Notes: generated from the sequence alone by a model not told the origin. A DNA stretch of 64,000 nucleotides from Escherichia phage RCS47 (NC_042128.1); one strand, 5' to 3'; counted from the first letter of the stretch, positions 2,637 to 27,811 are shown. Numbers and translations are program-made.

Positions 2637-2825
2637 TAAATATATTATTTTTAATCTGAAATAATTGACAACTGACAAGTGACTTCAGTCAGAATCATCA
2701 CATGCCCGGTACGGATGGATCCCTTTTCAAATATTCCATGGACGGCACAGTCTGAGTACCGGGCGCTACCTTCAGTTGTATTGCTAAGCCGCCGCTGGTG
2801 GCTTTTCTTTTTTGTAGGGGGCGCT

Positions 2826-3467
2826 ATGGATAAGAAAATATGCGTTGTTTCAATGAGCGTCGGCAAACCGGCGTCAATGACTGCTGCATGGATCAACAAT
2901 GAGCTGATAATGGCTGAGCGGACCAGCTACCCTGAACGCCGCCGCGATATGGAACTCCAGCTGCTGCGCGAATTGCGAGAAAAAGAGGAAAAGGGTTTTA
3001 TCGTGCTGGTGGAAGAGGAAAACAGCTTTATTACTGGTCGAGTTGGCCAGCGTGTAAGGTTGCGCGATCCCTTCATGAACGGCAGGCCGGTACTGATTGA
3101 AGCAATGCAGATTTACAAGGAGCTGGAACGCCAGAAAGCGATCAAGTTACCGCGCAAGGAATCCGGCAAATACATCCTCCACCAAAGCATCTTCGATTCC
3201 GAACACGATAAAAAAGGCGATGAATTTTTCAACATCAACTGGAGTGAAATAACGACAGAGCATGTTCTGACGTTACTATGTTGCTTTGCGACGGAATACA
3301 ACAACGTTGCCAGCGCCGACTACATCAGGGCAATGGCTGGAGAAGTTGAGGCCCGCCAGGAACCATCGTTACTAAGCCCTCTGATTAACATAATTCGCGG
3401 AACCCAAACACTGGCGCAAAAACAAGTACCACGAGGGGAATTGACGGGTAAAGGTAATTATCTCTGA
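2826..3467 (+). CDS. Mat-like protein (by synteny after ref)
   Basis: ATG at 2826 preceded by GGGGG; 213 aa; position matches P1 mat. Confidence 0.5.
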   Translation: MDKKICVVSMSVGKPASMTAAWINNELIMAERTSYPERRRDMELQLLRELREKEEKGFIVLVEEENSFITGRVGQRVRLRDPFMNGRPVLIEAMQIYKELERQKAIKLPRKESGKYILHQSIFDSEHDKKGDEFFNINWSEITTEHVLTLLCCFATEYNNVASADYIRAMAGEVEARQEPSLLSPLINIIRGTQTLAQKQVPRGELTGKGNYL

Positions 3468-3506
3468 AAGATGCCCGGCGACAGACCGGGCAAAAGGGCG
3501 GAAAGT

Positions 3507-3755
3507 TTAATCAGCATTCAGGAGCAATGCGTTATCTATGATGATCTGCTCCCATTCTTCGAATGCCCGATCGCGGACGCCCTGGGGAACACTGTTAGTT
3601 TTGAAATCGACGACCGTACGCCATTTCCCGTCCGGACGGTACATGCGCAGAGCTTTACTTCCCCCTTCCCTGCGCACCTCAACGTTATGCTTGTCAGCAA
3701 ACTCTTGTAATGCTCGTAGCGTCCCATGCTTTACTGTGTAGTATCGCTTTTTCAA
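3507..3755 (-). CDS. lxc: Lxc/Bof C1 co-repressor
   Basis: 82-aa product MKKRYYTVKHG...; TTG start overlapping upstream stop; last gene of darB-ulx-lxc operon. Confidence 0.6.
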   Translation of the reverse strand: MKKRYYTVKHGTLRALQEFADKHNVEVRREGGSKALRMYRPDGKWRTVVDFKTNSVPQGVRDRAFEEWEQIIIDNALLLNAD

Positions 3756-4192
3756 GTTTTCTCTCCAGCCTGTGCCAAGGCTTCAACTTCCAAATCGTAA
3801 GACTCAAACTCATAGTCCTGGTCGTCAACTTCTTCAGGCACTGGCAGTAAATGCCAGGCTGAGTATATCTGACCATTATCAAAACGCTCCTGGCTGTAGA
3901 GCGTCGCGGCTATGAGTGTTAGCGCCGGGCGGTCATAACGGTAAATTTTGCGAACGTCACGGTCAACGAGACGACCGAAATTACCATAACCGCGCTCCAG
4001 TAATAATTTTTTAATTTCCGGCCAGTATGGGCCATAGCTGCGGTACAGGCGGGGATTTTTCAGTAATCGCCCGCGTAGCCCTGACAGGAAGAAATCAACG
4101 TATTCGTCTTCTGTCTTTCCTAACAATGCCGTACGCAGTACCGCCTCAAGATATGTTTTATTCGGTTTTATTGTATCAGATAGTGTGGCCAT
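3752..4192 (-). CDS. Ulx-like protein (upstream of lxc)
   Basis: 146-aa ORF, ATG start, between darB and lxc. Confidence 0.45.
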   Translation of the reverse strand: MATLSDTIKPNKTYLEAVLRTALLGKTEDEYVDFFLSGLRGRLLKNPRLYRSYGPYWPEIKKLLLERGYGNFGRLVDRDVRKIYRYDRPALTLIAATLYSQERFDNGQIYSAWHLLPVPEEVDDQDYEFESYDLEVEALAQAGEKT

Positions 4193-4225
4193 ATTATGCG
4201 ACGCCCGGCGAACCGGGCGCTCCTG

Positions 4226-7200
4226 TTATGCGTATTGTTGGATGACGGCCAGAACGTCCGCCACGTTGTGTTTTGTCTCGATAATCCACCAGTTACCCGG
4301 GAAATCGCTGTTCTTCGCCTTCGCTGGCAGCCAGCGAGCGCCGAATTTCGCCTTGATTGCGTCTTTCGCACGGAAAAGAACGCCTTTCATGCCTGAGGCT
4401 TCCTGAAGCCCAAATACCTCGCCAGCGGCGAATTTTGGTGCGTACATCATCTTCAGGTCGGCGGTGGATACGCGATAATTCAGACCAAGAGACTGAGCTA
4501 TGCTGGTGGCATCACCCTGTATTGATGATAACTCTTCTTGTTTCTCGTTTCTGGCGGCAATTTCTTCCTCCGTGATGTTGCCAAGGGCCAGGTTTATCCG
4601 ATCAGCGTCGGCCTGTTTCTCTTCATCGGTGCGTCCGGCAAGAACCGTGTTAACTCTCTGCAATATCTCCACATGATTCTTGCGCATGCTGAGCAATTCC
4701 GGCGTAACCTCGTTAAGATCCACCAGCCCAAGGATGGCAAGGTCGGAAAACATTGATACCAGGTTGTAGGTCATGCGATAGCTGAGTTGACCATAGGCTG
4801 ATGGCAACTTCACCGCATCCATTTGATAGGCATCCATAAATTTAGAGCCGTCGTTTACGACATCCGCAATTGCCGGTGTGATTTTTCCTGTGGTGGCGGC
4901 CTCCCTGATTGCTGTTACCCACGATTGAGTCAGCGCGGCGACTGCATGATTCAGATTGGCTTTCCGTTCTGCTGCAATGCGCGCACTTGCTGCGTCCATT
5001 GCCTGCTTGATCTCGTCTTTATTGCTGTAAATGCCAATGGTGCCAAACTGTGCTGTGGTGATCTCATAATCTGACGCCCGGAACTCATTGGTACCGAAAA
5101 TGGCATTGGTGACTTCAAGTTCAGAATCCCCGTTACGAGTAGACCCCTGGCTTGTTTTTTCCGGCATTCTGGCGATCGCATCCGCTATTTTCTCCTGAAT
5201 TGCTTCAGGGGATAGCGTATCTCCGTATGACGCGATTACATCGCCATAATTGGAGCCAAACAATTCAACCAGGAATGTTTCTGCCGAACGGATCTGGCGG
5301 TTATTCCCTTCCGACATCATACCAAGCACCCATTTTGCAATTGACGACTTCAGCGCGCCGTCACGGCGATCCGGGTAAACCGCATGCTTCAGTGGGTCCG
5401 TATAGGTGCCAACAAAATCAATGCTATAGCCTGACTCTGTAGTCTGAACGCCGTATGAGTCAGTGATTTTGATCATGCCGCGCTGCTGGAAACGGTAGAA
5501 ATCGTCACAGGAAATGATGTCGTTAATCCCGGCGATGGAGACGCCACCACTGATTTTCTGCATAACAGCATCTTCATCGGGAGTTACATCCACCTGTTTA
5601 TCCAGCGTCTTCACATCCCAGTTACCCGATTTGGTGCCTTTGAAGGTAAAGATGATCTCCACGTCTGCGCGCGGGCTGTCGAAGTCCAGCGACTTAATGC
5701 GAACGATATCACCGGCACAATCGTAGTATTGGCCTACACGCCATGAGCGATCGCCGATAACAAGGAACTCATTCGCATGGTTAACCAGATCAGGATCAAC
5801 ATCCAGAATGCCTTTATTTATTGCATCCTCCACCAGCGGGCGCAGGCGTTTGATATCCGTCGCGGCCTTCTGAGTACGGTTCAATAATTTCTCATAGCGG
5901 GAGATGGCCTGAGAGATATTAGCCTTGCGCTGAATGGCGCTTTTCAACGACGCGCGATACTGTGCTAACAACGTACGGTCTGTGTGATGGACGCTACCCC
6001 AGCGGGCTTTCCAGTCTGCGTTATCAGCTGCTTTGGCCATTACCGCCTGTTTGAATTTAGCTACCTCGGCGGTGGTCTTTTCAAGTTCCGCTTTGCTTCG
6101 CTCTAATTCAGCGGTAAGTACCTCCGCATCCTCGCCAGCTGCGTGCTGCGCCTTGATGTAGCTCTGAAGGTCGATAGTAGCCTGTTCTTTCTGGCGAGCG
6201 CGTTGCGCGGCTTTCGCCTTATCCATTTGAACCTGCATCATTGCCAGACGTTCGCCGTCATCCTTCGCGGTATACATCTGCATTTCGATCATGTCATTGG
6301 CGTCGGCGTTCTCCATTTCCGACTTATCTGAACGGAGGATATCGGAGATCCAGCCTGCTTTACGCTTCAGCGTCTTCAATCGGTATTCATCGAAAGACCC
6401 CTTGCCGCAGTAGTAGTGAACGCGAACGCTTGCACGGTTGGAGCCAACTCGAGCACCGCGACCGTTACGTTGTGCGATGCTGGCTGGAGTCCACGGCAAC
6501 GTCAGGTGGTGGATATCCGTCGTTCCTCGATGCAGGTTGATACCCACCTCTGCCTTTTTGTTGCAGATGATGATCGGAGTCCGGCCCTCCTGGAAGTCGG
6601 CTGCAATCTTTTCCAGACCGCCCAACGACATTTCATTTTGCTGCGCGATATAGGCGTCATACAGAGCCATTTGCTCGTTGTATTTCGCTATCTGTGCATC
6701 TGTTGGTTCATCCGGTAACTCTTTCGGCGGTTTAACCGCTTTCAGTTTCTTACCGGTTTTACCTGCCTCGGCAACCGTCTGAGCATTCAGGATCCCCACC
6801 TTTGAAGGTTCAAGGTTAAGAGCATTGCAGATAATGCGCTTGAGCTTCTGGTGCTGCGTTTTTTCATCGGTGAAGATGATTTGCTTACCTTCCGGGAAAA
6901 ACTCCTTCAGCGTGGCAATCAGCTTCGCGTATTTGGGCGTAACGGGGTGAGTTACGGTCTGTTCGTCAATGCCAAACCTGGCCAGGCGCTTATTCACTTC
7001 CTGCTCGAACGCTTCCGGAACCTGTAACTGAATAAACTCGCCCTTATCTATCAGGGAGTATTGCGATTGCTGCGTGATTGAATCATCACTGTCGTCGTCT
7101 TCGCTGGTGGCTTGTTTAGGCAAACTGTCCGCCAGCTGCTGCACCGCATCGGCGTACTCCGGCAGGAAACGATAGGTGATCCGGCGATAGTACAGGTCCA

Positions 7201-14089: not shown

Positions 14090-14639
14090 TGACCAGTCCC
14101 GTCAGGCAAAGCTGGCGTTCTTTTTCACGGCGAATCTTTAAACCTCGCAGGGGCACGCCGTTACTGTTCACGAAATCAGGGAGATGGTTACACATATTCA
14201 CCCATTCCCCTTTCTGCGCCCACTTGTGGATGGACGTTTCTACTCGCATGCCTCGCGCTTTGCTGTAGTAGGTCCGTAAGCTATTGCATCCCATATTGAA
14301 TGCCGCGCTTGTCATTGCACTGAAGGCATTATCGGGCATGTCTTTGCCCCGGAAGTGCTGATTAATACAGCGTTCAGCGATCAGGATATTCTTTTCCCAA
14401 TCAGCGGCGATTTGCTGGTCGGTTTTTCGCACACCCGGCGTTACCCCGTGTGTATTACCGATCCCGTCAGTCCATACCCCCGCCGGGCACATGTATGGAT
14501 CACGTCGGCAACCTTCAGCGTTACCAATCAGCTCAAGCCCCGCCTGGTTGGTTCGCACATTGCCATTACCCATCACGATGGTAATCATCACCGCGATAGC
14601 GCAAATTGCACCGCCTCCTGCGGCTGTTTTTCCCTTCAT
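14082..14639 (-). CDS. lyz: Lyz endolysin with N-terminal signal-anchor-release domain
   Basis: 185 aa from ATG at 14637-14639; MKGKTAAGGGAICAIAVMITIVMGNG... followed by lysozyme-like sequence. Confidence 0.85.
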   Translation of the reverse strand: MKGKTAAGGGAICAIAVMITIVMGNGNVRTNQAGLELIGNAEGCRRDPYMCPAGVWTDGIGNTHGVTPGVRKTDQQIAADWEKNILIAERCINQHFRGKDMPDNAFSAMTSAAFNMGCNSLRTYYSKARGMRVETSIHKWAQKGEWVNMCNHLPDFVNSNGVPLRGLKIRREKERQLCLTGLVNE

Positions 14640-14772
14640 AAAGACCTCATAAGCGAATTTTTTACGCTCCAGGACAAACACTCATTCACAGCCAATACCG
14701 ACTGACTCGATCCCTTTAGAAGGCACAGGATAATGCAAATCACTTGTTAGCCACGTTTCAAAGATATACATT

Positions 14773-14789
14773 ATTGCTCTAATTAATTT
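14773..14789. promoter_or_regulatory. C1 operator-like site upstream of ssb
   Basis: ATTGCTCTAATTAATTT, 20 bp upstream of ssb start. Confidence 0.55.
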
Positions 14790-14808
14790 ATTTTATTAGG
14801 TAAGAAAA

Positions 14809-15297
14809 GTGGCACAACGCGGTGTAAACAAAGTCATCCTGATTGGTACCCTGGGGCAAGACCCGGAGATCAGGTATATACCAAATGGCGGCGCAGTCGG
14901 AAGACTCAGCATCGCAACGAATGAATCATGGCGCGATAAGCAAACGGGCCAACAGAAAGAGCAAACAGAATGGCATAAAGTCGTTTTGTTCGGAAAACTT
15001 GCTGAAATTGCGAGTGAGTATTTACGAAAAGGTTCTCAGGTCTACATCGAAGGGAAACTTAAAACCCGTAAGTGGACTGATGACGCCGGTGTAGAACGTT
15101 ACACGACGGAAATTATCGTCAGCCAGGGCGGCACCATGCAAATGATCGGCACTCGCCGCGACGATTCACAGTCCTCAAATGGCTGGGGGCAGTCAAACCA
15201 ACCTCAAAACCACCAGCAATACAGCGGTGGCGGCAAACCTCAGAGCAGCGCCAATAACGAACCTCCAATGGACTTTGACGACGATATTCCGTTTTGA
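14809..15297 (+). CDS. ssb: single-stranded DNA-binding protein
   Basis: 162 aa, GTG start; OB-fold region plus Gly/Gln-rich tail ending DFDDDIPF. Confidence 0.9.
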
Positions 15298-15494
15298 ATG
15301 TGTAAAAAACGACTGAAAGAAAAGCGGTGGTCCAGACGCCGACAAAAGCACGAACTCGCAAACAAACGCCAAAGTTGGCAATGGCACACGCTTTTCACGA
15401 AAAGAACACCCCGAGATATTGCGTTCGCTGGTGGGAAAACATTCCTGCCCCACCTGAAGGCGCAATACATCAGGTTTTAAGCAGAGGAAAGACT

Positions 15495-15946
15495 ATGAAT
15501 AACATGACAACGAAAGAGCTTTTGACGGCACTTCCAAAATACAAAAGCCATAAAACAGTTCGCGCCTCAAAAATCAAAGATATCGAAATTATCGCCCTAA
15601 TGGATGTGGTCCTTTTTTGCAACATCGAAGTCGTTGAGCCAGAAGGGGTAAAAGTCCATGTTGATAAAATATTTTTGCAAAAACACCGACCAGAAATTGG
15701 CGGATATCTGGTCGCTTATGAGGACGGATCTCTGTCCTATTCACCAGAAAAAACATTTGAAGAAGGCTTTAGTCGGACTAACGACTTCTTCGAAAATGGG
15801 GTATCGCTCAGCATTGAAGGTCACAATGGGGTGACATTCATTACAGCCAGGGACGTAACTATTTCTGCTGGCGGTATCGCTACTCTACAAGAAGAAATCG
15901 ACCTTGAAGCAGCCGACTTTTCTGACGCGCTGATGTGGCTGAAGGA
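15495..15946 (+). pseudogene. 5' part of a phage gene interrupted by the IS26 unit
   Basis: ORF from ATG 15495 runs in frame into the IS26 left end; its continuation is found after the second IS26 at 25584. Confidence 0.65.
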
Positions 15947-16766
15947 GGCACTGTTGCAAATAGTCGGTGGTGATAAACTTATCATCCCCTTTTGCTGATG
16001 GAGCTGCACATGAACCCATTCAAAGGCCGGCATTTTCAGCGTGACATCATTCTGTGGGCCGTACGCTGGTACTGCAAATACGGCATCAGTTACCGTGAGC
16101 TGCAGGAGATGCTGGCTGAACGCGGAGTGAATGTCGATCACTCCACGATTTACCGCTGGGTTCAGCGTTATGCGCCTGAAATGGAAAAACGGCTGCGCTG
16201 GTACTGGCGTAACCCTTCCGATCTTTGCCCGTGGCACATGGATGAAACCTACGTGAAGGTCAATGGCCGCTGGGCGTATCTGTACCGGGCCGTCGACAGC
16301 CGGGGCCGCACTGTCGATTTTTATCTCTCCTCCCGTCGTAACAGCAAAGCTGCATACCGGTTTCTGGGTAAAATCCTCAACAACGTGAAGAAGTGGCAGA
16401 TCCCGCGATTCATCAACACGGATAAAGCGCCCGCCTATGGTCGCGCGCTTGCTCTGCTCAAACGCGAAGGCCGGTGCCCGTCTGACGTTGAACACCGACA
16501 GATTAAGTACCGGAACAACGTGATTGAATGCGATCATGGCAAACTGAAACGGATAATCGGCGCCACGCTGGGATTTAAATCCATGAAGACGGCTTACGCC
16601 ACCATCAAAGGTATTGAGGTGATGCGTGCACTACGCAAAGGCCAGGCCTCAGCATTTTATTATGGTGATCCCCTGGGCGAAATGCGCCTGGTAAGCAGAG
16701 TTTTTGAAATGTAAGGCCTTTGAATAAGACAAAAGGCTGCCTCATCGCTAACTTTGCAACAGTGCC
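15947..16766 (+). mobile_element. IS26 copy 1
   Basis: 820 bp, ends GGCACTGTTGCAAA ... TTTGCAACAGTGCC. Confidence 0.92.
16010..16714 (+). CDS. tnpA: IS26 transposase
   Basis: 234 aa [35 protein letters not shown]... Confidence 0.95.
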
Positions 16767-17421
16767 TTTCGCCCTCATCCGGTTCATGACGGTCGGGCAG
16801 GGAGGCAATCTGAATATGGCGATACTGGCCGGCATATTCGGTAATAAGATGGCTTAAATTGCCGTCCACCTTCTGCGCGTGAAACAGATCTAACTGCACC
16901 GCCAGGTTCGGCCTGTCGACCCGTTTCACCATCGCCAGCGTCTGATATTGACTGTGGTAGAGATAGCCCGGTTTGGTCTGCGGATTCAGCGCTTCGATGA
17001 GTATCCGCTTGTCGTGGCGGGCAAAGCACTCCGCCGCGTAGCGCAGATTATCGATAAGCACGGCCTCGCAGGCTGCGCGATCCGCTCCCGGCGGCACCAC
17101 GCCGGCCATGATATGCACCTGCGGGCAACCGAGCTGGCAGGCATACTCCAGCGCCAGCTCAATATCGCGTCGGGCCTCCGCGCTTCTCCCGGGGATGGCG
17201 GCGAGCCCCCATTCTCCGGCGTTGACGTCGCCGGGTGGGGTATTGAACAGCACCAGCTGCAGCTGGTTCTCCTGCAGGCGCTGTCTGATTTCCCCGGCGG
17301 CATACTCATAGGGAAACAGAAACTCAACGGCTTCAAATCCCGCCCGGGCAGCGGCGGCAAAGCGTTCCAGGAACGGCAGTTCGGTAAACAGCATGGATAA
17401 ATTTGCAGCGAATTTTGGCAT
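16767..17421 (-). pseudogene. ygbM: ygbM-like hydroxypyruvate isomerase family gene, 3' end truncated by IS26
   Basis: N-terminal ~218 aa intact, reading frame continues into IS26. Confidence 0.65.
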
Positions 17422-17425
17422 GGTT

Positions 17426-18046
17426 TTATCTCAGTTCTTTTACTTCGTCAGCGGTCAGGTAGCGGATCTCGCGGTTGCCGAGGGTAAATATCAGCCGTGC
17501 GGTCTCTTCCAGTTCCTCGGTATTGTTGGTGGCTTCGCGCAGCGATGAGCCAGTAACCACCGGTCCGTGGTTGGCCAGTAAAAAGGCGTTATAGCGGGGC
17601 GCCAGCCCGGCCAGCGCCTGGGCAATACGGTCATCGCCCGGCCGGTAGTAGGGAACCACCGGGACGTCGCCGACGCGCATCACCACATAGGGGGTAAAGG
17701 GGCGGATACAGTTGTGCGGATCGAGCCCCTGCAGGCAGGAGAGCGCGGTCAGATAGTGGCTGTGCAAGTGGACGATCGCCTTGCAGGCCGGGTTGTGCAA
17801 ATAGACTGCCCGGTGAAAAGTGACCTCTTTCGACGGTTTGTCGCCGGAGATCCATTCTCCTTGCAGCGTCACCACCGACAACCGCTGAGCCTGCAGTTCG
17901 CCGAGGCAGGCGCCGGTCGGCGTCGCCAGCAGGTTGCCGTCCGGCAGCAGCAGCGACAGATTGCCAGCGGAGCCGGTGGCATAGCCGCGGCTAAATAACG
18001 AGGCGCCAATCTGCACCATTTCCTCTCGCAGTTGTTGCTCAGTCAT
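17426..18046 (-). CDS. ygbL: class II aldolase/adducin family protein (YgbL-like)
   Basis: 206 aa from ATG 18046; part of ygbJKLM-type operon. Confidence 0.65.
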
Positions 18047-19304
18047 GACGAAACTCCTGCTGGGCACGGGCAAAGAACTGGATATCGCCGAAGTTACCTG
18101 ACTTCAGCGCCAGGGAGAGCGGCTGGCGGGTGTCACGCACCCAGGGCACGCCAGGGGAGATGGTCGGCCCAATATGGAACGCCTCAACCCCCAGGGTCTG
18201 CGCCACAATGCTCGACGTTTCCCCTCCGGCCACAATAAAGCGGGTAAATCCTTTCGCCTTCAGGGCGGCGGCAAGAGCGGCAAACAGCTGTTCCACCCGT
18301 TCGCTGCTGGCCTTGTCGCCATACTGCGCCTGGATCCGCTGCAGCGTTTGCGGCTCGGTGGTGGCATAGATCATCGGCGCCAGCGGCGCATCGCGCTGCG
18401 CGTCCACCCAGTCAGTCAGCGTCCTGACGTAGCTCTCCAGATCGGTAAAGCAGGCGCTTAAGTCGACGGCGCGGGCGGGGGCCTGTTGACGATAGGCCGC
18501 CACCTGGCTGTTGGTCATCACCGAGCAGGAGCCCGAGAGCACCACCGCCGGGCCGACCAGCGGCATGCCGGCCTGAGCGCTTTCACCCCGGGCGCCATGG
18601 CGCTGCGCCAAGTCGCGGGCGAGGCCGATGGCGAGGCCGGAACCGCCGGAGACCAGCTTCATCTCCCGCAGCGCCACGCCCTGGGTGAGCAGATCCTGTT
18701 CGCTGAGGGCGTCGAGCACCACATAGCGCACCGCCGGATCGTTGACTGCCGCCAGCGCGGCGGCGACCGCCTCCGGCCCCCGGGCGACAATCGGCCAGGC
18801 AATCAGCGCGGCTTTTCCGCGCCCCTGGCGCTCAATTAAGCGGCCCAGGTGCGCATCCTCCATCGGCGTCACCGGATGGTGGCGCATCCCGGACTCATTC
18901 AGCAGTTGCTCGCCGACGAACAGATATCCCTGATAGACCGTGCGGCCGTTAACCGGCAGCGCCGGGGAAATCACCGTCCGCGTCTCACCCAGCTCGGCCA
19001 GCAGGGCATCCAGCACCGGGCCAATGTTGCCCTGCGCGGTGCTGTCGAAAGTGGAACAGTACTTGAAATAAAACTGCTGACAGCCCTGGGCCTGCAGCCA
19101 GCGCAGGGCCGCCAGCGACTGGCTGACGGCCATTTCCGCCGGGCAGGAGCGAGTTTTCAGGCTGATGACCACCGCCTCGCTGGTCAGCGGAAGATCGCGG
19201 GTCGGCACGCCATTCAGTTGCACCGTCGGCATGCCGTTGCGCACGAGGAAGCTGGCAATATCCGTGGCGCCGGTGAAGTCATCGGCAATGACACCAAGCT
19301 GCAT
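18039..19304 (-). CDS. ygbK: four-carbon acid sugar kinase family protein (YgbK-like)
   Basis: ~421 aa; operon context. Confidence 0.6.
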   Translation of the reverse strand: MQLGVIADDFTGATDIASFLVRNGMPTVQLNGVPTRDLPLTSEAVVISLKTRSCPAEMAVSQSLAALRWLQAQGCQQFYFKYCSTFDSTAQGNIGPVLDALLAELGETRTVISPALPVNGRTVYQGYLFVGEQLLNESGMRHHPVTPMEDAHLGRLIERQGRGKAALIAWPIVARGPEAVAAALAAVNDPAVRYVVLDALSEQDLLTQGVALREMKLVSGGSGLAIGLARDLAQRHGARGESAQAGMPLVGPAVVLSGSCSVMTNSQVAAYRQQAPARAVDLSACFTDLESYVRTLTDWVDAQRDAPLAPMIYATTEPQTLQRIQAQYGDKASSERVEQLFAALAAALKAKGFTRFIVAGGETSSIVAQTLGVEAFHIGPTISPGVPWVRDTRQPLSLALKSGNFGDIQFFARAQQEFRHD

Positions 19305-19315
19305 GTTGTCTCTCC

Positions 19316-20218
19316 TCACTGTTTATGGCCCGGCAGGGTGATGCCGTTGAAAATCTTGATCACCGCGCTGTCATCTTCCCGACCGAATCCGGCATTACTG
19401 GCGGAGGTGAACATATTCAGCGCGGTGGTAGCGAGCGGCAGCGGGAAGGTCAGCGCCCGGGCAGTGTCATTCACCAGCCCGAGATCTTTGACAAAAATAT
19501 CGACAGCGGATTTTGGCGAGTAATCGCCATCCAGGACGTGCTGCATGCGATTCTCAAACATCCATGAATTACCCGCCGCGTGGGTGACCACGTCATACAT
19601 CGTTTCGAGTGGGATCCCGGCGCGGGCGGCAAGCGCCATCGCTTCGGCGGCAACGGCGATGTGCACCCCGGCCAGCAGCTGATGGATAATTTTTACCGTC
19701 GAGCCAAGACCAATGTCGCTCCCTATGCGGTAGACTTTGCCGGCCACGGCGTCCAGCACCGGCGCGAGGCGGGCAAAGGCGGCATCGCTCCCGGAGGCCA
19801 TCACCGTCATGTCGCCGGCGGCCGCTTTCACGGCGCCGCCCGATACCGGCGCGTCGAGCATCAATAGCTGGTACTCCGCCAGCGCCTCGGCAATGGCCTG
19901 AGCATCGGCGGAAGCGATGGTGGACGACACCATCACGACGGTGCCCGGCTTCAGATGGGCGGCGAGGCCGCTCTCGCCGAACAGGATCCCCCGCACCTGG
20001 GCGGCATTGACCACCAGCAGCACAACTGCATCCAGTTCCGCGGCGAACGGCACCGCGCTGGGGCCCGCGCCATTGGCGCCCGCCGCCAGCAGTGCGCGAC
20101 AGTTGTCGGGATTGATGTCAACGCCCCAGGTGTTCAGGCCCGCCTGCAGGCAGGCGCGGGCGGCGCCCATGCCCATTGAACCCAGTCCAATCACGCAGAC
20201 GTTAGTGTGTGCAGCCAT
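19316..20218 (-). CDS. ygbJ: NAD-dependent 3-hydroxyisobutyrate dehydrogenase family protein (YgbJ-like)
   Basis: 300 aa; N-terminal GLGSMG Rossmann motif. Confidence 0.7.
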   Translation of the reverse strand: MAAHTNVCVIGLGSMGMGAARACLQAGLNTWGVDINPDNCRALLAAGANGAGPSAVPFAAELDAVVLLVVNAAQVRGILFGESGLAAHLKPGTVVMVSSTIASADAQAIAEALAEYQLLMLDAPVSGGAVKAAAGDMTVMASGSDAAFARLAPVLDAVAGKVYRIGSDIGLGSTVKIIHQLLAGVHIAVAAEAMALAARAGIPLETMYDVVTHAAGNSWMFENRMQHVLDGDYSPKSAVDIFVKDLGLVNDTARALTFPLPLATTALNMFTSASNAGFGREDDSAVIKIFNGITLPGHKQ

Positions 20219-20478
20219 GCTGGTCTCCTTGTGAACATTAGTTAATTAATGTGATTTAATGATAGAATAAAGCGTTATCATGTGAATTTATGTGAGAGTT
20301 ATCACGAATAACCCACATGAATATAAAAAATTCACAGGCGGAAAGAGGCTGCACAACGGCGATTCTTGCCCTAAAATAGCGTAAAAACAGCGGCAAAGCG
20401 CGATAACAACACCGGGTGTCGCCAGGGCCGTAGCCTGGGTGGTGACGCCTGGTGTGAAAAAATGGTAAGGGGAGAGCG

Positions 20479-21240
20479 GTGATTCCAATAGAACGACATC
20501 AGCGTATTTTAGCCCTGGTGGAGCAGCGTGGGGCGGTAAGCATTAACGAGCTGACGGAGATCCTCGGCGTGTCCCATATGACCATCCGTCGGGACGTCAG
20601 TAAACTGGAGGAGCAGGGGCTGCTGGTCAGCGTCTCGGGCGGCGTGCGCGCCGTCAGCCGGCTGGCTGCGGAACCCAGTCATCTGGTGAAAAGCACGCTG
20701 CAGAGTGAGGAGAAACAGGCGATCGGCGCGCTGGCGGCGAGTCATATCGCTAAAAACAGTTGCATCTATCTGGATGCCGGGACTACCACCCTGGCGCTGG
20801 CGCGGGCGATCCTCGACCGGAACGATCTCCAGGTGGTCACCAATGATTTTGAGATAACCCAGCTGCTGATCGATGCCAGCCAGTGCGGCGTGATCCACAC
20901 CGGCGGCACTCTGTGCCGGGAGAACCGCTCCTGCGTGGGCGAATCGGCGGCGCGTACGTTACGCCACCTGGCTATCGATACGGCCTTTATCTCCGCCAGC
21001 GGCTGGGACAGTCGCGGGATATTCACCCCTGATGAGAACAAGGTTACCGTCAAGGAGACCGTCAGCCAGGTCAGCGCGAGAAGCATCCTGCTGTGCGACA
21101 GTTCGAAATACAATCAGGTGGCCACGTTTATGGCGTTACCTTTGACCCGGTTCACCACCATCATTACCGACCGGCATCTTTCCGATGCCGCCGCCAGTCA
21201 TATCGCCCGGCACGCCTGCGAGGTGCTGCGGGCCGGATAA
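20479..21240 (+). CDS. ygbI: DeoR family transcriptional regulator (YgbI-like)
   Basis: 253 aa; N-terminal HTH then sugar-binding domain; divergent from ygbJ. Confidence 0.7.
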   Translation: MIPIERHQRILALVEQRGAVSINELTEILGVSHMTIRRDVSKLEEQGLLVSVSGGVRAVSRLAAEPSHLVKSTLQSEEKQAIGALAASHIAKNSCIYLDAGTTTLALARAILDRNDLQVVTNDFEITQLLIDASQCGVIHTGGTLCRENRSCVGESAARTLRHLAIDTAFISASGWDSRGIFTPDENKVTVKETVSQVSARSILLCDSSKYNQVATFMALPLTRFTTIITDRHLSDAAASHIARHACEVLRAG

Positions 21241-21260
21241 CGCGCGCGGCCACCGCCGGG

Positions 21261-22121
21261 TTAGCGTTGCCAGTGCTCGATCAGCGCCGCGCCGATCCCG
21301 GCGATTTGCTGATTTCGCTCGGCCATGCTCGCCGGGGTATCCCGCAGATAAATCACCACAATGCGCTCTGCTTTGTTATTCGGGCCAAGCAGGGCGACAA
21401 TCCCGCGCGCACCCCGCTCGCTAGCTCCGGTCTTATCGGCGATAAACCAGCCCGCCGGCAGCACGGAGCGGATCAACGGTCCGGCGACCCGATCGTCCAC
21501 CATCCACTGCAGCAGCTGCCGTTGCGAACGGGCGCTCAGACGCTGGCTGGTCAGCAGCTTGCGCAGGGTCGCGGCCATGCTGGCCGGGGTAGTGGTGTCG
21601 CGGGCGTCGCCGGGAAGCGCCTCATTCAGTTCCGTTTCCCAGCGGTCAAGGCGGGTGACGTTGTCGCCGATCTGGCGCAAAAAGGCAGTCAATCCTGCGG
21701 GGCCGCCGACGGTGGCCAGTAGCAGATTGGCGGCGCTGTTATCGCTCATGGTAATGGCGGCGGCGCAGAGTTCGCCGACCGTCATGCCGTCGGCAAGGTG
21801 TTTTTCGCTGACCGGCGAGTAGTCCACCAGATCCTGCTGGCGATAGTGGATCTTTCGCTCCAGCTGTTCGTCACCGGCATCCACCCGCGCCAGCACTGCG
21901 CCGCAGAGCACTACTTTAAAGGTGCTCATCATGGGAAAGCGTTCATCGGCGCGCCAGGCGGTCAGCGTGCGGCCGCTGGCCAGATCCATTTCTATCATGC
22001 CTACGCGGCCCGACAGCTGGCTTTCGCTTAGTTTAATTTGCTCAAGCGGCTGCGGGCTGGCGTGTACCGCCAGCGGCAGGGTGGCTAACAGGGAGATAAT
22101 ACACAGGCGAATATAACGCAT
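21261..22121 (-). CDS. blaSHV: SHV class A beta-lactamase, Ser238 variant (SHV-2-like, extended-spectrum)
   Basis: 286 aa [21 protein letters not shown]...; [11 protein letters not shown] with AGC (Ser) codon at Ambler 238, Glu240, Leu35. Confidence 0.93.
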
Positions 22122-22397
22122 AACCACAATACATCCTTGAGTGAGGGCCGATAAAGGCGAGTAAAGAAGCGACAAATAAGAATAACCCGGCGTTTTGCTG
22201 ATTCACAATTCCTCTTTTTTCCTTCATCATTTTTCATCTTTTATTTCGAATAATCAATATCTAGCCCTGCCTAAGCACGCTATTTTTTGACTCAAGGCCG
22301 TGATGAACTATAAGAAAGTACTAAATACCGCACTCTGTCGGGCGTCGCTGTTTGCCGATCACCACGCCCGCCGGTCCCTGCGGTTCGCCAACGCTAT

Positions 22398-22679
22398 ATG
22401 CCATCCCGGGAGGAACTGGTGCACCCGATAATTAAGGTCATGCTGGTGGGCGGTAAGGCGGACGGGCTGTTGGTCAGCGTCGCCGATGACGCGACCGAAG
22501 TCTCGGTGACGCCTGCGCAGTACGGTGCGCTATCCGGGCAATCGTTGAGCTACCGAATTGTTAGCCAAACCATTGACGATGAACGCTATTTTTTTGGCGT
22601 TTTCAGCGACGCCCATCAGGATAGCGATAAGCTGACGCGGGTCGCCCTGACCCGTGGAATGAAAAAAATGTTCTGTTAA
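22398..22679 (+). CDS. hypothetical small protein upstream of recF-like ATPase
   Basis: 93-aa ORF, no recognisable motif. Confidence 0.3.
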   Translation: MPSREELVHPIIKVMLVGGKADGLLVSVADDATEVSVTPAQYGALSGQSLSYRIVSQTIDDERYFFGVFSDAHQDSDKLTRVALTRGMKKMFC

Positions 22680-22765
22680 ACCCTGCCCGAAAGGGGGCGT
22701 AAGAGGGTATGCCGGGCGCCGCTGTGCTACTGTGGCAGCCTTCTATTTCCAGGGCCGGACGCATA

Positions 22766-23854
22766 ATGATTCAGTACATTCGTATTCAAAATTTTCGCTC
22801 AGTAAAGGATATCGCGCTGGAGCTCGGGCCGCTGAACATTGTCTTCGGCCCTAACGGCTGCGGTAAATCCAATATTTATAACGCCATCCACCTGCTGACC
22901 GCTGCCGCTGAGGGCAGGCTTTCGGGGTTTATCAGCGAAGAGGGCGGTCTGGAGAATATGATGTGGTCCGGGGAGCGTTCGCCCCTCGATCGTCACCCCC
23001 GCCGGCTGCAAATCGCCTGCCGGACCGACAGCTTCGATTATGAACTGCAGATAGGCTTCCCTGAAAAATTGCCCTATCCGACGCAATTCATGCTCGATCC
23101 TATCGTTAAAGAAGAGAATATCTGGCTGGCCGGCTACTCCCGCCGGCCTTCCTCCCGCGTACTGCAGCGCAAGAATCAGGCGGCGTTTCTCGTCGATGTC
23201 ACCGGGGAGAAAAGTACTTTCACCGAGAGTATTTATGAAAATGAGTCGGTGTTCGGTCAGCTTGGCGAGCCGCACCGTTTTCCCGAAGTATCGCGAGTGC
23301 GGGAGACGCTGCGCCGTTGGCGGTTTTATCATGAATTCGCGATTGGCCGTCATTCGCCACTGCGTCAGCCGGCCGTGGGTTACCGTTCGCCAGTCCTCGA
23401 CAGCGATGGCCAGAATCTCGCCGCCGCCTTTCAGACCATTGTCGAGATCGGCGCGGAGGAGATTTTGCATGAAATCCTTGCCGACGCCTTTCCCGGCTGC
23501 CAGTTTTATTGTGAAAACGAGCACTCGCGTTTCGCTCTGAAAATGCGTCGCGAAGGGATCCGCCGCCCGCTGCTGGCGGCGGAGATGTCCGACGGTACGC
23601 TGCGCTTTTTGTGCCTCGCCGTCGCGCTGCTCAGTCCGCGCCCGCCGGCGTTTCTGGCGATCAATGAACCGGAGAACAGCCTGCATCGCGACATGTTGCC
23701 CGCGCTGGCCCGGCTGATTATCGAGGCCTCGCGCTACAGCCAGATCTGGCTGACCAGCCACTCGGCGGAGCTGGCGGAGCTTATCGCCGCCGGGGCGCCT
23801 TGTCAGCGCTATGCGCTGGAGAATCGCGGCGGTGAGACGCGGATTGTCGAGTGA
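22766..23854 (+). CDS. RecF-like AAA family ATPase
   Basis: 362 aa from ATG 22766; MIQYIRIQNFRS, Walker A GPNGCGKSN, C-terminal LAINEPENSLH. Confidence 0.7.
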   Translation: MIQYIRIQNFRSVKDIALELGPLNIVFGPNGCGKSNIYNAIHLLTAAAEGRLSGFISEEGGLENMMWSGERSPLDRHPRRLQIACRTDSFDYELQIGFPEKLPYPTQFMLDPIVKEENIWLAGYSRRPSSRVLQRKNQAAFLVDVTGEKSTFTESIYENESVFGQLGEPHRFPEVSRVRETLRRWRFYHEFAIGRHSPLRQPAVGYRSPVLDSDGQNLAAAFQTIVEIGAEEILHEILADAFPGCQFYCENEHSRFALKMRREGIRRPLLAAEMSDGTLRFLCLAVALLSPRPPAFLAINEPENSLHRDMLPALARLIIEASRYSQIWLTSHSAELAELIAAGAPCQRYALENRGGETRIVE

Positions 23855-23884
23855 AGCCCGTCATCCCTGACGGGGGCGCTGGAG

Positions 23885-24763
23885 TCAGGCGGGGCTCTGC
23901 GTCTCTGCGGTCGGCAGCAGACGGTTGCCGCCGCGTAGGGTGACGAACGAGAGCAGGGTGAAGCTCAGGGTTATGCAGCCGAGGATCAGATAGGCCTGAT
24001 GGAAGCCGACGGTGTCGTACATCCGGCCCACCCAGGCGGAAAGCACCACCCCGGACAGCTGTTTTGACAGATTAAAACCGATCAGGAACAGGGTGGCCGA
24101 GAGGCGCGGGTTAAAGGCGGAAGAGATATATTTAAAAGTTCCCACCAGCAGGAAGGGGATCTCAAACATATGCAGCATCTTGAGGATCACCACCTCGACT
24201 GCCGATGAGGCGAAGGACGACCCGAGAATACGCACCGACATGATCATCCCCGCGGTCAGCAGGGCGTTTTTGGCGCCGATGCGGTTAACGATGGCCGGCG
24301 CGCAGAACATGATCAGCGCGTTGAGCAACTCGCCGCCGGTGGTGACGAAGCCAAACACTTCGGTACCGCGCTGCGGACTGGCGAAAAAGCTTTTGAAAAA
24401 GTTGGCGAACTGCTGGTCAAACACGTCGTAGACGCTGGCGACACCCACCACATAGACGATAAAGCCCCAGAAGCGCGGCATACGCAGCAGCTCTGCCGCC
24501 GTACGCAGCGAAAAGGCCTGGCGATTGGCGCCCAGCGCCTCGATAACCTGGGCGCTGTTGCTGCTTTCCGGCCGCGACAGCCAGAGCAGCAGACCGAGCA
24601 CCAGCGCAAAGCCGGAGGCGATCCAGAAGGTGATATTGGGATCGATGCCGAACAGCACGCCGGTTATCGAGGCGCATAGCGCCCAGCCGACGCAGCCTGC
24701 GACCCGCACTTTGCCATATTCAAAGCGGTTGGCCCGGCTGACGCGTTCGATATAAGCTTCCAC
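23885..24763 (-). pseudogene. lacY: lacY lactose permease, 5' end truncated by IS26
   Basis: C-terminal ~290 aa of an MFS permease colinear with LacY (...FEYGKVRVAGCVGWALCAS...); frame continues into IS26. Confidence 0.8.
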
Positions 24764-25583
24764 GGCACTGTTGCAAATAGTCGGTGGTGATAAACTTATC
24801 ATCCCCTTTTGCTGATGGAGCTGCACATGAACCCATTCAAAGGCCGGCATTTTCAGCGTGACATCATTCTGTGGGCCGTACGCTGGTACTGCAAATACGG
24901 CATCAGTTACCGTGAGCTGCAGGAGATGCTGGCTGAACGCGGAGTGAATGTCGATCACTCCACGATTTACCGCTGGGTTCAGCGTTATGCGCCTGAAATG
25001 GAAAAACGGCTGCGCTGGTACTGGCGTAACCCTTCCGATCTTTGCCCGTGGCACATGGATGAAACCTACGTGAAGGTCAATGGCCGCTGGGCGTATCTGT
25101 ACCGGGCCGTCGACAGCCGGGGCCGCACTGTCGATTTTTATCTCTCCTCCCGTCGTAACAGCAAAGCTGCATACCGGTTTCTGGGTAAAATCCTCAACAA
25201 CGTGAAGAAGTGGCAGATCCCGCGATTCATCAACACGGATAAAGCGCCCGCCTATGGTCGCGCGCTTGCTCTGCTCAAACGCGAAGGCCGGTGCCCGTCT
25301 GACGTTGAACACCGACAGATTAAGTACCGGAACAACGTGATTGAATGCGATCATGGCAAACTGAAACGGATAATCGGCGCCACGCTGGGATTTAAATCCA
25401 TGAAGACGGCTTACGCCACCATCAAAGGTATTGAGGTGATGCGTGCACTACGCAAAGGCCAGGCCTCAGCATTTTATTATGGTGATCCCCTGGGCGAAAT
25501 GCGCCTGGTAAGCAGAGTTTTTGAAATGTAAGGCCTTTGAATAAGACAAAAGGCTGCCTCATCGCTAACTTTGCAACAGTGCC
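24764..25583 (+). mobile_element. IS26 copy 2 (direct orientation)
   Basis: 820 bp with same terminal IRs and identical transposase ORF. Confidence 0.92.
24827..25531 (+). CDS. tnpA: IS26 transposase
   Basis: identical 234-aa product. Confidence 0.95.
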   Translation: MNPFKGRHFQRDIILWAVRWYCKYGISYRELQEMLAERGVNVDHSTIYRWVQRYAPEMEKRLRWYWRNPSDLCPWHMDETYVKVNGRWAYLYRAVDSRGRTVDFYLSSRRNSKAAYRFLGKILNNVKKWQIPRFINTDKAPAYGRALALLKREGRCPSDVEHRQIKYRNNVIECDHGKLKRIIGATLGFKSMKTAYATIKGIEVMRALRKGQASAFYYGDPLGEMRLVSRVFEM

Positions 25584-25816
25584 TGAAGGATGGCAAGAAA
25601 GTTGCTCGACGCGGGTGGAACGGCGAAAACCAATTCTGCTGGCTGGTTCCTGAAGGACAGTACCCGGCACGAATGGAAGCCATTAAGGGATATTTCCCCG
25701 GCGACCTCGTTCCGTATGGTGCTTATTTCGCCTTAAAAAATGCACAAGGTGTAGTTGTTCCGTGGGTTCCTTCTGTAGGCGACTTACTGGCATGTGACTG
25801 GTTTGTAGTGGAGTGA
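25584..25816 (+). pseudogene. 3' part of the interrupted phage gene; DUF2829/Tad2-like domain
   Basis: (K)DGKKVARRGWNGENQFCWLV...PWVPSVGDLLACDWFVVE, in frame with 15495-15946 after removal of the IS26 unit. Confidence 0.6.
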
Positions 25817-25822
25817 TTTAAC

Positions 25823-26605
25823 GTGGAAAATACTAAAGCAATTCAATACCGCCTGCGTAATGGCCAGAGTGTCGAAGTGACCATCAATAATGATGGAGTA
25901 CCTGGCGAAAAGGTTTCTATCTCTGATCTGGCTATCGAAAAAACCATCATGTGCCACCTTGGCTTTACTGAAGAAGTGAGCAAAAAGCATGGTGTAGCAA
26001 TCTGGAGCGCAATGGATACTGGTATGCGCAAATTCATTACTGCTCGTACCCCAGGGATGACCATGATGGACCTCATGCAGATTGCGCCGCTGTTTGAATG
26101 TGAGCCTTTAGATGTATTCAGCAATCCAGCTATCTGCCAGCAGTTATATGGTGAGATGAAACTCGCGGTTACCCCCATTGTGCTGCATGAAGGATCGCTT
26201 GCTGGCGTGTGGAAAGTAGAGCGTATTTCAAGCTACATGCCTTTCCATGTCAACGGCGTAATCACTGGTGAAAATCAACCTGTTTCCGTTATAAAGTCAG
26301 ACCTCAAGCGCGCAATTCTTGAAGCAAGTTGTCGAGTTGTCGGCCTGGGCAAACAGTCTTATGTTTCCTTCCCGGCTGGCCCTGAAGGCCCGGCAGAAAT
26401 TCTGATCATGGATGCCGATCTGCTATGGCAAATACAGTTTCTGATTGGCAAAAGCATCATCCGCGCTGAAGAACTCGATCAGTACATTACCTGCACGATG
26501 ACGGATGAAGTCAAAAGTGTAGCTATAGCCAATGCCCGGAACCTATGTCGTGCTGCATTAACAGAATTGCAAGAAAACACCACGGAAGAAGTGGAAAGCG
26601 ATTAA
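25823..26605 (+). CDS. hypothetical phage protein
   Basis: 260-aa ORF, GTG start after GGAG. Confidence 0.45.
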   Translation: MENTKAIQYRLRNGQSVEVTINNDGVPGEKVSISDLAIEKTIMCHLGFTEEVSKKHGVAIWSAMDTGMRKFITARTPGMTMMDLMQIAPLFECEPLDVFSNPAICQQLYGEMKLAVTPIVLHEGSLAGVWKVERISSYMPFHVNGVITGENQPVSVIKSDLKRAILEASCRVVGLGKQSYVSFPAGPEGPAEILIMDADLLWQIQFLIGKSIIRAEELDQYITCTMTDEVKSVAIANARNLCRAALTELQENTTEEVESD

Positions 26606-26616
26606 ATGTATTAGCT

Positions 26617-27800
26617 CAGACCTGATCTGACAGTTACCGGTTATTTATACAGGTATCTGTCAGATTACATCTGGCTTAAATTTTTCTCGGCCCAGATGCG
26701 TTTTCCATCAAGTAACGTTTCCATTGGCGTACGCCCACAGCACATTTTTCCCTGATGAGTTCGCTCATTATTGTAATGCCACAACCACTTGTCCAGATCC
26801 ATTTGCAGGCTTTCCAGGTTTGTATATAGCTTTTTACGGAACGTAACCTGATAAAACTCCTGCAAAATGGTCTTATGGAAGCGCTCGCAGATGCCGTTCG
26901 TCTGCGGAGACATCGCCTTCGTTTTCGTATGGTCAATGTCGTTGATAGCCAGATACAACTGATAATCATGCTGCTCAACTTTACCACAGTACTCTGTTCC
27001 CCTATCGGTCATGATTCTCAGCATCGGCAGCCCCTGAGACTCGTAGAACGGCAGTACACGATCATTGAGCAAATCAGCTGCGGTGATCGGCGTTTTACTC
27101 GTATATAGTTTGCAGTGTGCCACTTTCGAGTACGTATCCACGAACGTCTGCTGATAGATACGGCCAACACCTTTCAGGTTGCCCACGTAGAAGGTGTCCT
27201 GTGACCCCAGATACCCCGGATGTGCCGTTTCGATTTCACCGTTGGCCTCATCATCCTGGGCTTTCTTTTCTAGCGCTGCGATTTGAGCGTCAGTGAGTAC
27301 GATCCCTTCTCTGGCGACTTTTTCTTCAAGTGCTTTCAGACGTTTACGGAAGTTCTCCAGGTCGTGTCGTTGCCAGATGGAGCGTACGCCGCTGCCGGAG
27401 ATAAATACGCCTTTCTTACGCAGTTCATTACTGGTCCGGTGCTGCCCATGAGCCGGAAACTCAATTGCGTACTCAACAACTGCACGTTCAGTCGCTTCAT
27501 CGACACGGTTCTTTATGTTCGGGACTCTGCGGTTCTGATTAACCAAAGCATCAATACCGCCTTCCTCAGCCAGTTCCTGATAGCGGTAAAATGTGTCGCG
27601 TGACACCCCCATGATTTTACAGGCTTTTGATACGTTACCGAGTTCTTCGGCGAGGTTGAGCAGACCGACTTTGTGTTTGATGATGGGATTGTTAGTATGA
27701 AGCATGAGAGTTACCTCGTGTTTTGTATAAGGATTAGACACCCATATCAAAACCGGTAACTCTCAACCTTTCAAGGCTCAGTGTCAGATCAAGTCGCGAC
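26617..27800 (-). mobile_element. IS481-family insertion sequence (boundaries approximate)
   Basis: single transposase ORF flanked by imperfect inverted repeats containing TGATCTGACA and GTTACCGGTT. Confidence 0.6.
26665..27705 (-). CDS. IS481-family DDE transposase (HTH plus rve integrase core)
   Basis: 346 aa from ATG 27705 after GAGGT; C-terminal ...SPQTNGICERFHKTILQEFY... integrase-core signature. Confidence 0.7.
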   Translation of the reverse strand: MLHTNNPIIKHKVGLLNLAEELGNVSKACKIMGVSRDTFYRYQELAEEGGIDALVNQNRRVPNIKNRVDEATERAVVEYAIEFPAHGQHRTSNELRKKGVFISGSGVRSIWQRHDLENFRKRLKALEEKVAREGIVLTDAQIAALEKKAQDDEANGEIETAHPGYLGSQDTFYVGNLKGVGRIYQQTFVDTYSKVAHCKLYTSKTPITAADLLNDRVLPFYESQGLPMLRIMTDRGTEYCGKVEQHDYQLYLAINDIDHTKTKAMSPQTNGICERFHKTILQEFYQVTFRKKLYTNLESLQMDLDKWLWHYNNERTHQGKMCCGRTPMETLLDGKRIWAEKNLSQM

Positions 27801-27811
27801 TAATACAGATT

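Follow-up and report, generated by a model that had tools for sequence, protein, structure and literature searches.

A putative Tad2-family sponge gene interrupted by an IS26-blaSHV unit in the P1-like Escherichia phage RCS47

Introduction

The closest described relatives of the gene studied here are the Tad2 proteins, a family of phage sponges (Pfam PF11195, formerly DUF2829) that sequester immune signals. The founding member, SPO1 Tad2 (Gp34.65; PDB entries 8SME, 8SMF and 8SMG), is a sponge against type I Thoeris, and ModTad2 (also called MoTad2), from a Myroides odoratus prophage (8V3E for the apo form), sequesters histidine-ADP-ribose (His-ADPR; complex in 9EIB) and so acts on type II Thoeris. 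In this work we describe a gene of Escherichia phage RCS47 (NC_042128.1) that is split by two insertion sequences (ISs) of the IS26 type and the blaSHV resistance cargo between them, and whose rebuilt product carries a Tad2-type domain at its C-terminus. The whole stretch of DNA that was analysed, one strand of 64,000 nucleotides (nt), is called the window below. Our best explanation, to which we give a probability of about three in four, is that this was a dispensable gene for a Tad2-family sponge of P1-like elements, broken by the IS26-blaSHV unit.

In SPO1 Tad2 two V-shaped dimers interlock along helix alpha1 to form a tetramer, and ligand pockets exist only between protomers that do not form a dimer with each other. 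W25, N26, W73, S76 and D79 are the residues that chiefly contact the ADP-ribose moiety of the ligand. Later work found that ModTad2 also binds cyclic UMP and cyclic CMP (cUMP/cCMP) in a second pocket and inhibits Pycsar; type IV Thoeris is not inhibited by it. Tad2 domains are known to be joined to other modules, as in the Acb4-Tad2 protein of Pasteurella phage Pm86 and in Tad2-Sequestin fusions (PF21825). A 2025 preprint identifies PF21825 as the Sequestin and PF13876 as the Acb4 sponge family, and reports that Sequestin was discovered through its fusion to Tad2 and Acb4.

Another known protein of importance here is Dec of phage L, a late structural protein of 134 amino acids that sits as a trimer on P22-like capsids. 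Its oligonucleotide/oligosaccharide-binding (OB) fold (residues 10-77) is followed by a helix and, at the C-terminus, by a spike in the form of a trimeric beta-helix. With regard to RCS47 itself, the literature describes a P1-like element in which blaSHV-2 is flanked by two IS26 copies and inserted at the isaA/IS1 hot spot; the isaA-IS1-isaB interval is known as a variable region and integration hot spot, and the RCS47 blaSHV-2 insertion is placed there. In the literature examined, a body of work that stands apart from the original RCS47 paper, the insertion is never linked to a Tad2-like gene. The element that interrupts the gene appears to be published already; what is new is a member of the Tad2 family, the family itself being known.

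Reconstruction of the interrupted gene

The gene and the unit that splits it comprise the following features.

15495-15946, plus strand: 5' part of the gene, codons 1-150 plus 2 nt
15495-15998, plus strand: truncated open reading frame (ORF) as it stands today, residues 1-150 followed by 17 IS26-encoded residues (167 amino acids in all), with the Dec-like module intact
15940-15946, no strand assigned: left duplicated target, TGAAGGA
15947-16766, plus strand: IS26 copy 1, with tnp26 at 16010-16714
16767-24763, no strand assigned: IS26 cargo, with blaSHV, a DeoR-like regulator, sugar-acid metabolism genes, an AAA_21 ATPase and a truncated permease
24764-25583, plus strand: IS26 copy 2, with the sequence and orientation of copy 1
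25584-25590, no strand assigned: right duplicated target, TGAAGGA
25591-25816, plus strand: 3' part of the gene, from the last base of codon 151 through codons 152-225 to the stop codon (25814-25816)

The initial annotation had proposed that joining 15495-15946 to 25584-25816 restores a single in-frame ORF of about 228 amino acids. Taken literally, this join is 685 nt long and frameshifted. Both flanks carry the same 7-bp duplication, TGAAGGA, and once one copy is removed (15495-15946 joined to 25591-25816) a single ORF of 678 nt and 225 amino acids emerges, so that the idea of one gene survives with its frame and length amended. The rebuilt join agrees with the uninterrupted sequence ...ATGTGGCTGAAGGATGGCAAG... 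that occupies the locus in phages vB_EcoM-Ro157c2YLVW and SJ46. Of its 678 nt, the rebuilt gene differs at one from the intact copy on E. coli plasmid NZ_LR890336.1 and at two from that of Ro157c2YLVW, every difference being synonymous, and the rebuilt protein is identical to intact gene products in several P1-like plasmids, such as WP_001376650.1 (NZ_LR890336.1). With so few differences, all of them silent, the interruption is real and recent and the ORF is no chance construct; neither half has decayed. Taken separately, the 5' part is 99.5% identical to the intact Ro157c2YLVW gene, and the 3' part is 99-100% identical to intact plasmid genes. The ATG at 15495 has a GAGGA Shine-Dalgarno sequence 7 nt upstream.

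No second intact copy of the gene is present within the window. The junction between the gene and IS26 was found neither in the phage collection, 5,426 complete E. coli genomes or IMG/VR, nor among the 5,000 records listed for the PLSDB plasmids.

The C-terminal Tad2-type domain

The assignment of the C-terminal domain to DUF2829/Tad2, initially made from a conservation pattern, is borne out by profile, sequence and fold comparisons alike. Pfam PF11195 matches residues 141-224 with E=1.6e-22 (bit score 80.2, cutoff 25) and the match spans positions 2-73 of the 73 in the profile. A sequence search of the PDB returns ModTad2 (9EIB/8V3E) as the best match, with E of about 6e-20, followed by HgmTad2/AcrIIA7 (4e-10), SPO1 Tad2 (7e-9) and SptTad2 (5e-8). 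The rebuilt protein was also modelled as a monomer with AlphaFold2, using 53 homologues. The model has the Tad2 fold, with a helix at 142-150, five strands and a helix at 213-217; the predicted local distance difference test (pLDDT) score is about 86-93 over most of residues 141-225, and about 62-81 in the region of the beta2-alpha2 loop (approximately 161-190). When the full model is compared with the PDB using Foldseek, the top 24 matches are all Tad2-family structures and ModTad2 again comes first.

Which of the described Tad2 proteins is the nearest? Judged by pairwise similarity, the domain belongs to the ModTad2 clade and not to the type I Thoeris group. It shares 45% identity with ModTad2 over the whole 88-residue domain, with a single one-residue gap, compared with 33-35% for SPO1 Tad2. 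The WNG, W-x-P-S-x-x-D and DW motifs are conserved between the domain and ModTad2, as is an extended beta2-alpha2 region that SPO1 Tad2 lacks. ModTad2 differs in being a stand-alone protein of 88 amino acids, whereas the domain described here forms the C-terminus of a 225-residue fusion and departs from it at several positions that line the pocket (N201, Q203, V207 and G214). The likeness to a Thoeris anti-defence protein that was suggested at the outset thus holds for the family; the nearest characterised relative, however, is ModTad2, which acts on type II Thoeris and Pycsar, and not SPO1 Tad2, the sponge against type I.

SPO1 Tad2 is nonetheless alike in fold and in its core contact residues. 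Its pocket residues W25, N26, W73, S76 and D79 align to W160, N161, W209, S212 and D215. Across the 53 homologues W160, W209 and D215 never vary, and S212 hardly does. N161 is kept in the 225-residue protein and is absent from the columns reported as invariant across homologues. The ligand pocket therefore looks intact, but the ligand itself cannot be read from the sequence; His-ADPR is our best guess by relatedness, as ModTad2 is the closest characterised relative.

The N-terminal Dec-like module

The N-terminal part of about 150 residues had been described as free of recognisable motifs. This is true of the domain libraries: the N-terminal domain has no Pfam match, either alone or across 137 family members, and no NCBIfam match. 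It does have a homologue of known structure, however. A profile of 23 N-terminal regions matches phage L Dec (6E3C) in the PDB with E=1.9e-7 over Dec residues 13-122, and the OB part alone still reaches E=2e-5. In Foldseek, Dec is the only match of the N-terminal module at E<=1e-3 (E=4.8e-4) and the first match of the full-length model that is not a Tad2 protein. Comparison of profiles and predicted folds thus indicates that the N-terminal domain is homologous to the OB-fold of Dec.

The 5' part of the gene encodes this OB-fold, which is modelled confidently (residues 11-96, pLDDT about 90), a beta-rich linker (approximately 98-135) for which pLDDT is below 55 in the monomer model, and Tad2 helix alpha1 (142-150). 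A beta-rich segment also follows the OB-fold in Dec, and the profile match reaches Dec residue 122. Both proteins contain the motif PE(V/I)GGYL...G.L.Y....FE..(Y/F), and the module has a further conserved motif, (C/S)HK..(R)A.KI, that sets it apart from Dec. The settings differ as well: the module is part of what is probably an early operon in a myovirus-type phage-plasmid and is fused to a sponge domain. This context, an early ssb operon and absence from P1, argues against a late capsid-binding role for the module.

Operon context and distribution

Three further features place the gene in its operon.

14773-14789, plus strand: C1 operator Ossb, within the ssb promoter region, by identity with P1
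14809-15297, plus strand: ssb, an ORF of 162 amino acids; ssb is annotated at the equivalent position in P1, SJ46 and Ro157c2YLVW
25823-26605, plus strand: isaA-like gene, 260 amino acids, the conserved downstream partner; PHROG 2326 (unknown function)

Between lyz and ssb, the window (14660-14830) and P1 are 99% identical, and the P1 annotation places the promoters P2ssb and P1ssb together with Ossb in this region. No terminator-like site was found on the plus strand between ssb and the interrupted gene, and a promoter scan of 14600-16100 gave no consensus sigma-70 site, the conserved P1 ssb promoters themselves scoring below the scan threshold. Given the conserved ssb promoters and operator, and with no terminator ahead of the gene, we infer that it is co-transcribed with ssb and probably belongs to a C1-repressed early operon. 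A Tad2-like gene is missing from phage P1: its resemblance to the window breaks off at the gene's ATG, and the P1 sequence goes straight on into isaA. The interrupted gene is dispensable, because P1 lacks it.

Are the two halves a single ORF in related elements? They are in phages and, in a tblastn search of the protein against PLSDB, in 300 plasmid records, 236 of them with at least 80% coverage. Of the 300 records 198 are from Escherichia and 296 are classed as non-mobilizable, most measuring 90-100 kb, a profile that is the signature of P1-like phage-plasmids. The plasmids with an intact gene come almost entirely from Escherichia and Salmonella. Putative sponge genes of the ModTad2 clade are common in the P1-like phage-plasmids of these hosts (about 300 PLSDB records), laboratory P1 being without one.

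The names given to these genes vary. RefSeq labels the intact genes 'DUF2829 domain-containing protein', and the homologue in NZ_CP031917.1 bears the label 'MW1434 family type I TA system toxin' (toxin-antitoxin), which clashes with a Tad2-like assignment. NCBIfam has no match for the 225-residue protein and does not reproduce the 'MW1434 family' label for it.

Consequences of the insertion

The insertion point was predicted to fall at the first residues of the DUF2829-like domain, and it does: IS26 lies after K150 (codon 150), at the end of predicted helix alpha1 and about ten residues into the Pfam match. The 3' part encodes the domain from strand beta1 on, including W160, N161, W209, S212 and D215. 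The downstream remnant is without alpha1 and, with it, the invariant residues F142, A145, L146 and K150. Its only in-frame start is a TTG at 25571, inside the IS26 end, which has no Shine-Dalgarno sequence and opens an ORF of 81 amino acids (25571-25816). Sponge function has very likely been lost, since alpha1 is required for tetramerisation and hence for the pockets, and the remnant has neither a good start codon nor a ribosome-binding site.

We propose the following course of events. The intact gene would be expressed from the C1-repressed ssb promoter, probably early after infection or induction. By analogy with the solved Tad2 proteins, the C-terminal 85 residues would form a homotetramer whose inter-protomer pockets sequester immune signals derived from ADP-ribose or consisting of cyclic nucleotides, which would keep Thoeris-type, and possibly Pycsar, effectors from being activated; His-ADPR, the type II Thoeris signal, would be the most likely ligand. 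The N-terminal 135 residues would contribute the Dec-homologous module, an OB-fold with its beta-rich segment, of a kind that recurs at the head of single and multi-sponge fusions. Insertion of the IS26-blaSHV unit after codon 150, at the point that separates helix alpha1 from strand beta1, would then have left an N-terminal fragment (the Dec-like module, alpha1 and a 17-residue IS26 tail) and an untranslatable C-terminal remnant, and the sponge would be gone.

Sponge fusions and the wider OB family

The fusion described here resembles the Acb4-Tad2 and Tad2-Sequestin proteins in that Tad2 is joined to another module, and close relatives of the domain carry a C-terminal Sequestin (P0061, P0073, P0129 and P0145). 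It differs from them in that the partner is a Dec-like OB domain, which is not a known sponge. The sponge families listed in 2026 are Tad1, Tad2, Acb2, Acb4, Sequestin, Lockin and TadIV-1, and the OB domain is not among them.

To see how widespread the domain is, an OB profile was searched against 1.84 billion representative proteins, with matches grouped into clusters at 50% identity. At E<=1e-3 the family comprises 5,583 clusters, of which 2,970 also pass E<=1e-10. Its top matches are mostly stand-alone proteins of 83-130 amino acids. The family has a strikingly conserved, polar motif, (C)HK.V.A.KI ... P..GGY.V.Y.DGY.S.SP..FE.GY. No Pfam family covers the OB domain in the 137 top matches that were scanned. 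The Pfam partners fused to it in these same 137 proteins are Tad2-like (13), PF21825 (13), PF13876 (4) and the Acb2/Tad1 hairpin (1). The 2025 preprint's own tables contain OB-Sequestin fusions as well as a triple fusion of OB, Acb4-like and Lockin domains. In the longer fusions that we inspected, the OB domain stands at or near the N-terminus, ahead of Tad2 and Sequestin. The possibility that the N-terminal domain is itself a Lockin was ruled out by a hhalign probability of 0.5% against LockinA.

Some individual fusions may be mentioned here. P0129, P0132, P0141 and P0145 are phage proteins of 330-360 amino acids that combine an OB domain, a helical domain and Tad2 and/or Sequestin, and some of them have one more small beta-barrel. 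They have the look of polyproteins made of several sponges, with the OB domain in front. In some P1/D6-like plasmids a nearly identical Tad2 domain is fused to a dUTPase (P0056, 241 amino acids), and in P1/D6-like elements another is joined to a tail-fibre repeat (P0023). Phage D6 has a dUTPase gene, a short DUF2829 gene and an isaA-like gene at 2085-3817, next to cre; its DUF2829 protein has 146 amino acids, with an internal deletion of the OB-fold that leaves the Tad2 domain preceded by the beta-rich segment only. The sequence EIDLEAADFSDALMWLK is a recurrent joint at which domains are shuffled.

What could the N-terminal partner be for? It may supply oligomerisation, since dUTPases, tail fibres and Dec are all trimeric. 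For the OB domain two readings are open: an accessory or oligomerising head, or a ligand-binding anti-defence domain. By the fusion logic that led to the discovery of Sequestin, the OB domain becomes a candidate sponge, and we tentatively raise the idea that it is a new signal-binding sponge family or else an obligatory head domain for sponge arrays, while thinking this rather unlikely. If the OB domain does have an anti-defence activity, the IS26 insertion has left one of two such activities intact. In any case the more novel lead is the Dec-like OB family embedded in sponge fusions, the Tad2 member itself being an ordinary one. The domain ties a huge unannotated phage family to the network of immune-signal sponges and makes it a candidate new anti-defence family.

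Alternative explanations

Some findings weigh against the explanation that we prefer. A canonical IS26 target-site duplication is 8 bp long and only 7 bp (TGAAGGA) are duplicated here; an 8-bp duplication, CTGAAGGA, would require one further (third) C after the IS26 end ...GTGCC, and the shorter repeat reflects a miscalled homopolymer or else a genuine loss of 1 bp. The known Tad2 proteins are stand-alone tetramers of about 90 amino acids, whereas this protein is 225 amino acids long, with an N-terminal module of 135 residues that may be trimeric. The adenine-side contacts differ from those of SPO1 Tad2 (T65 is replaced by N201, D67 by Q203, H71 by V207 and T78 by G214). The literature examined contains no experiment on a P1-like Tad2 or a close homologue, and the ligands of Tad2 homologues are diverse, ranging over 3'-cyclic ADP-ribose (3'cADPR), His-ADPR, N7-cADPR, cyclic dinucleotides and cUMP/cCMP. 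Could the protein then be a Tad2-family sponge with a target other than that of ModTad2, for example the type I Thoeris signal 3'cADPR, the type IV signal N7-cADPR, the cyclic dinucleotides of cyclic oligonucleotide-based anti-phage signalling systems (CBASS), or only the cUMP/cCMP of Pycsar? Besides this wide range of ligands, single Tad2 homologues can inhibit several systems, and the adenine-side pocket is unlike that of SPO1 Tad2 and ModTad2 alike: Q203, nearly invariant in the P1-like group, replaces an Asp present in both. We treat a different target as possible but doubtful, because ModTad2 is by a clear margin the closest of the characterised proteins in sequence (45% identity compared with 33-35% for SPO1 Tad2) and the beta2-alpha2 region, the site of ModTad2's extra pocket, is equal in length.

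The Dec-like module invites another thought, namely that the protein is mainly a structural protein of the virion or its decoration, its OB-fold and beta-helix forming trimers on a capsid or another phage surface, with DUF2829 displayed as an appendage that has no role in sequestering immune signals. The N-terminal profile does match Dec over the OB-fold and part of the spike (E=1.9e-7, Dec 13-122), Dec is the sole significant fold match (E=4.8e-4), and the homologue P0023 carries a tail-fibre repeat. However, the gene appears to lie in the early C1-controlled ssb operon and not in a late morphogenetic one; it is absent from P1, whose virions are normal and reportedly without decoration proteins; the OB domain is fused to the intracellular sponges Tad2, Sequestin, Acb4 and Lockin; and the Tad2 pocket residues are conserved. 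We consider a structural role improbable for these reasons. That the domain is an anti-CRISPR of the AcrIIA7 type, or has some other non-sponge role, is barely credible, despite AcrIIA7/HgmTad2 being a member of PF11195 and a PDB match at E=4e-10. To our knowledge type II CRISPR-Cas is not usual in E. coli, and the sequence is nearer to ModTad2 than to AcrIIA7. The authors of the Tad2 work hold DUF2829 proteins to be anti-Thoeris sponges, Cas9 binding never having been shown. It is also very improbable that the interruption had no functional consequence, whether through a remnant still made from an IS26 hybrid promoter and the TTG at 25571, or through a gene already irrelevant in a permissive hot spot. 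The ssb-hxr interval is indeed a recognised variable region and integration hot spot of P1-like elements, P1 having IS1 there and the window a second IS at about 26.6-27.8 kb, and the 81-residue ORF (25571-25816) does exist. Yet that ORF is without a Shine-Dalgarno sequence and without alpha1 (F142, A145, L146 and K150), and a hot spot accounts for an insertion being tolerated, not for the survival of the Tad2 domain beside it.

If the locus is, as we think, a dispensable sponge gene broken by the IS26-blaSHV unit, it offers a concrete trade-off: a phage-plasmid paid for its resistance cargo with a counter-defence gene. Loci for accessory anti-defence would then be soft spots where cargo can land, and the element would be expected to be at a disadvantage in hosts that have type II Thoeris or Pycsar.

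The IS26 unit and its cargo

The two IS26 copies (820 bp each) are 100% identical and directly oriented, with canonical 14-bp terminal inverted repeats (GGCACTGTTGCAAA / TTTGCAACAGTGCC), and their transposase ORF matches the NCBIfam model of the IS6 family transposase. Direct copies bracketing cargo, here with a start-to-start distance of 8817 bp, are the arrangement of a pseudo-compound transposon. The whole IS26-flanked block measures 9.6 kb and sits between ssb and isaA. Its cargo of 8.0 kb is richer in G+C (58-66%) than the flanks (46-49%), and many Klebsiella plasmids carry DNA 99.9-100% identical to it. The truncated permease gene abuts IS26 copy 2.

The cargo includes a gene for a class A beta-lactamase of the SHV family (21261-22121, minus strand; bit score 666, cutoff 640). 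In SHV numbering its GASERG motif would place Ser238, which would make the enzyme SHV-2-type. A P1-like phage named RCS47, with blaSHV-2 between two IS26 copies, was reportedly described by Billard-Pomares et al. 2014 (GenBank FO818745). The arrangement of IS26 and blaSHV in the window is like that in the literature description of RCS47. Accompanying blaSHV on the plus strand is a gene for an AAA_21 / AbiEii-like ATPase of 381 amino acids (22709-23854; Pfam E=2e-29). ATPases of this type are known from abortive-infection and defence systems, and a defence-like gene may have been gained while an anti-defence gene was destroyed.

Neighbouring genes

The product of the isaA-like gene is 94% identical to P1 IsaA and has no Pfam, NCBIfam or PDB match. 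In P1-like elements this gene lies directly 3' of the Tad2-like gene, and it also occurs in D6, at another genomic position (25823-26605 in the window, 3880-4662 in L001 and 3041-3817 in D6). This suggests that the Tad2-like and isaA-like genes form a two-gene module.

In P1 (NC_005856) IsaA is annotated as 320 amino acids (4028-4990), to be compared with 15327-15498 plus 25823-26605 of the window. The annotation uses an upstream GTG start and runs across sequence that forms, in other P1-like elements, the leader of the Tad2-like gene and its start codon. The annotated P1 start is probably over-extended, and the conserved body would be the 260-residue ORF of the window.

The isaA-like gene is followed in order by a second IS, hxr and ddrB. 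This IS, between isaA and hxr, spans roughly 26610-27810, and its ORF (26665-27750, minus strand) encodes a transposase of 361 amino acids with helix-turn-helix and rve integrase-core domains. P1 carries IS1/isaB in the isaA-hxr interval where the window has this second IS, and the interval has therefore been struck independently several times.

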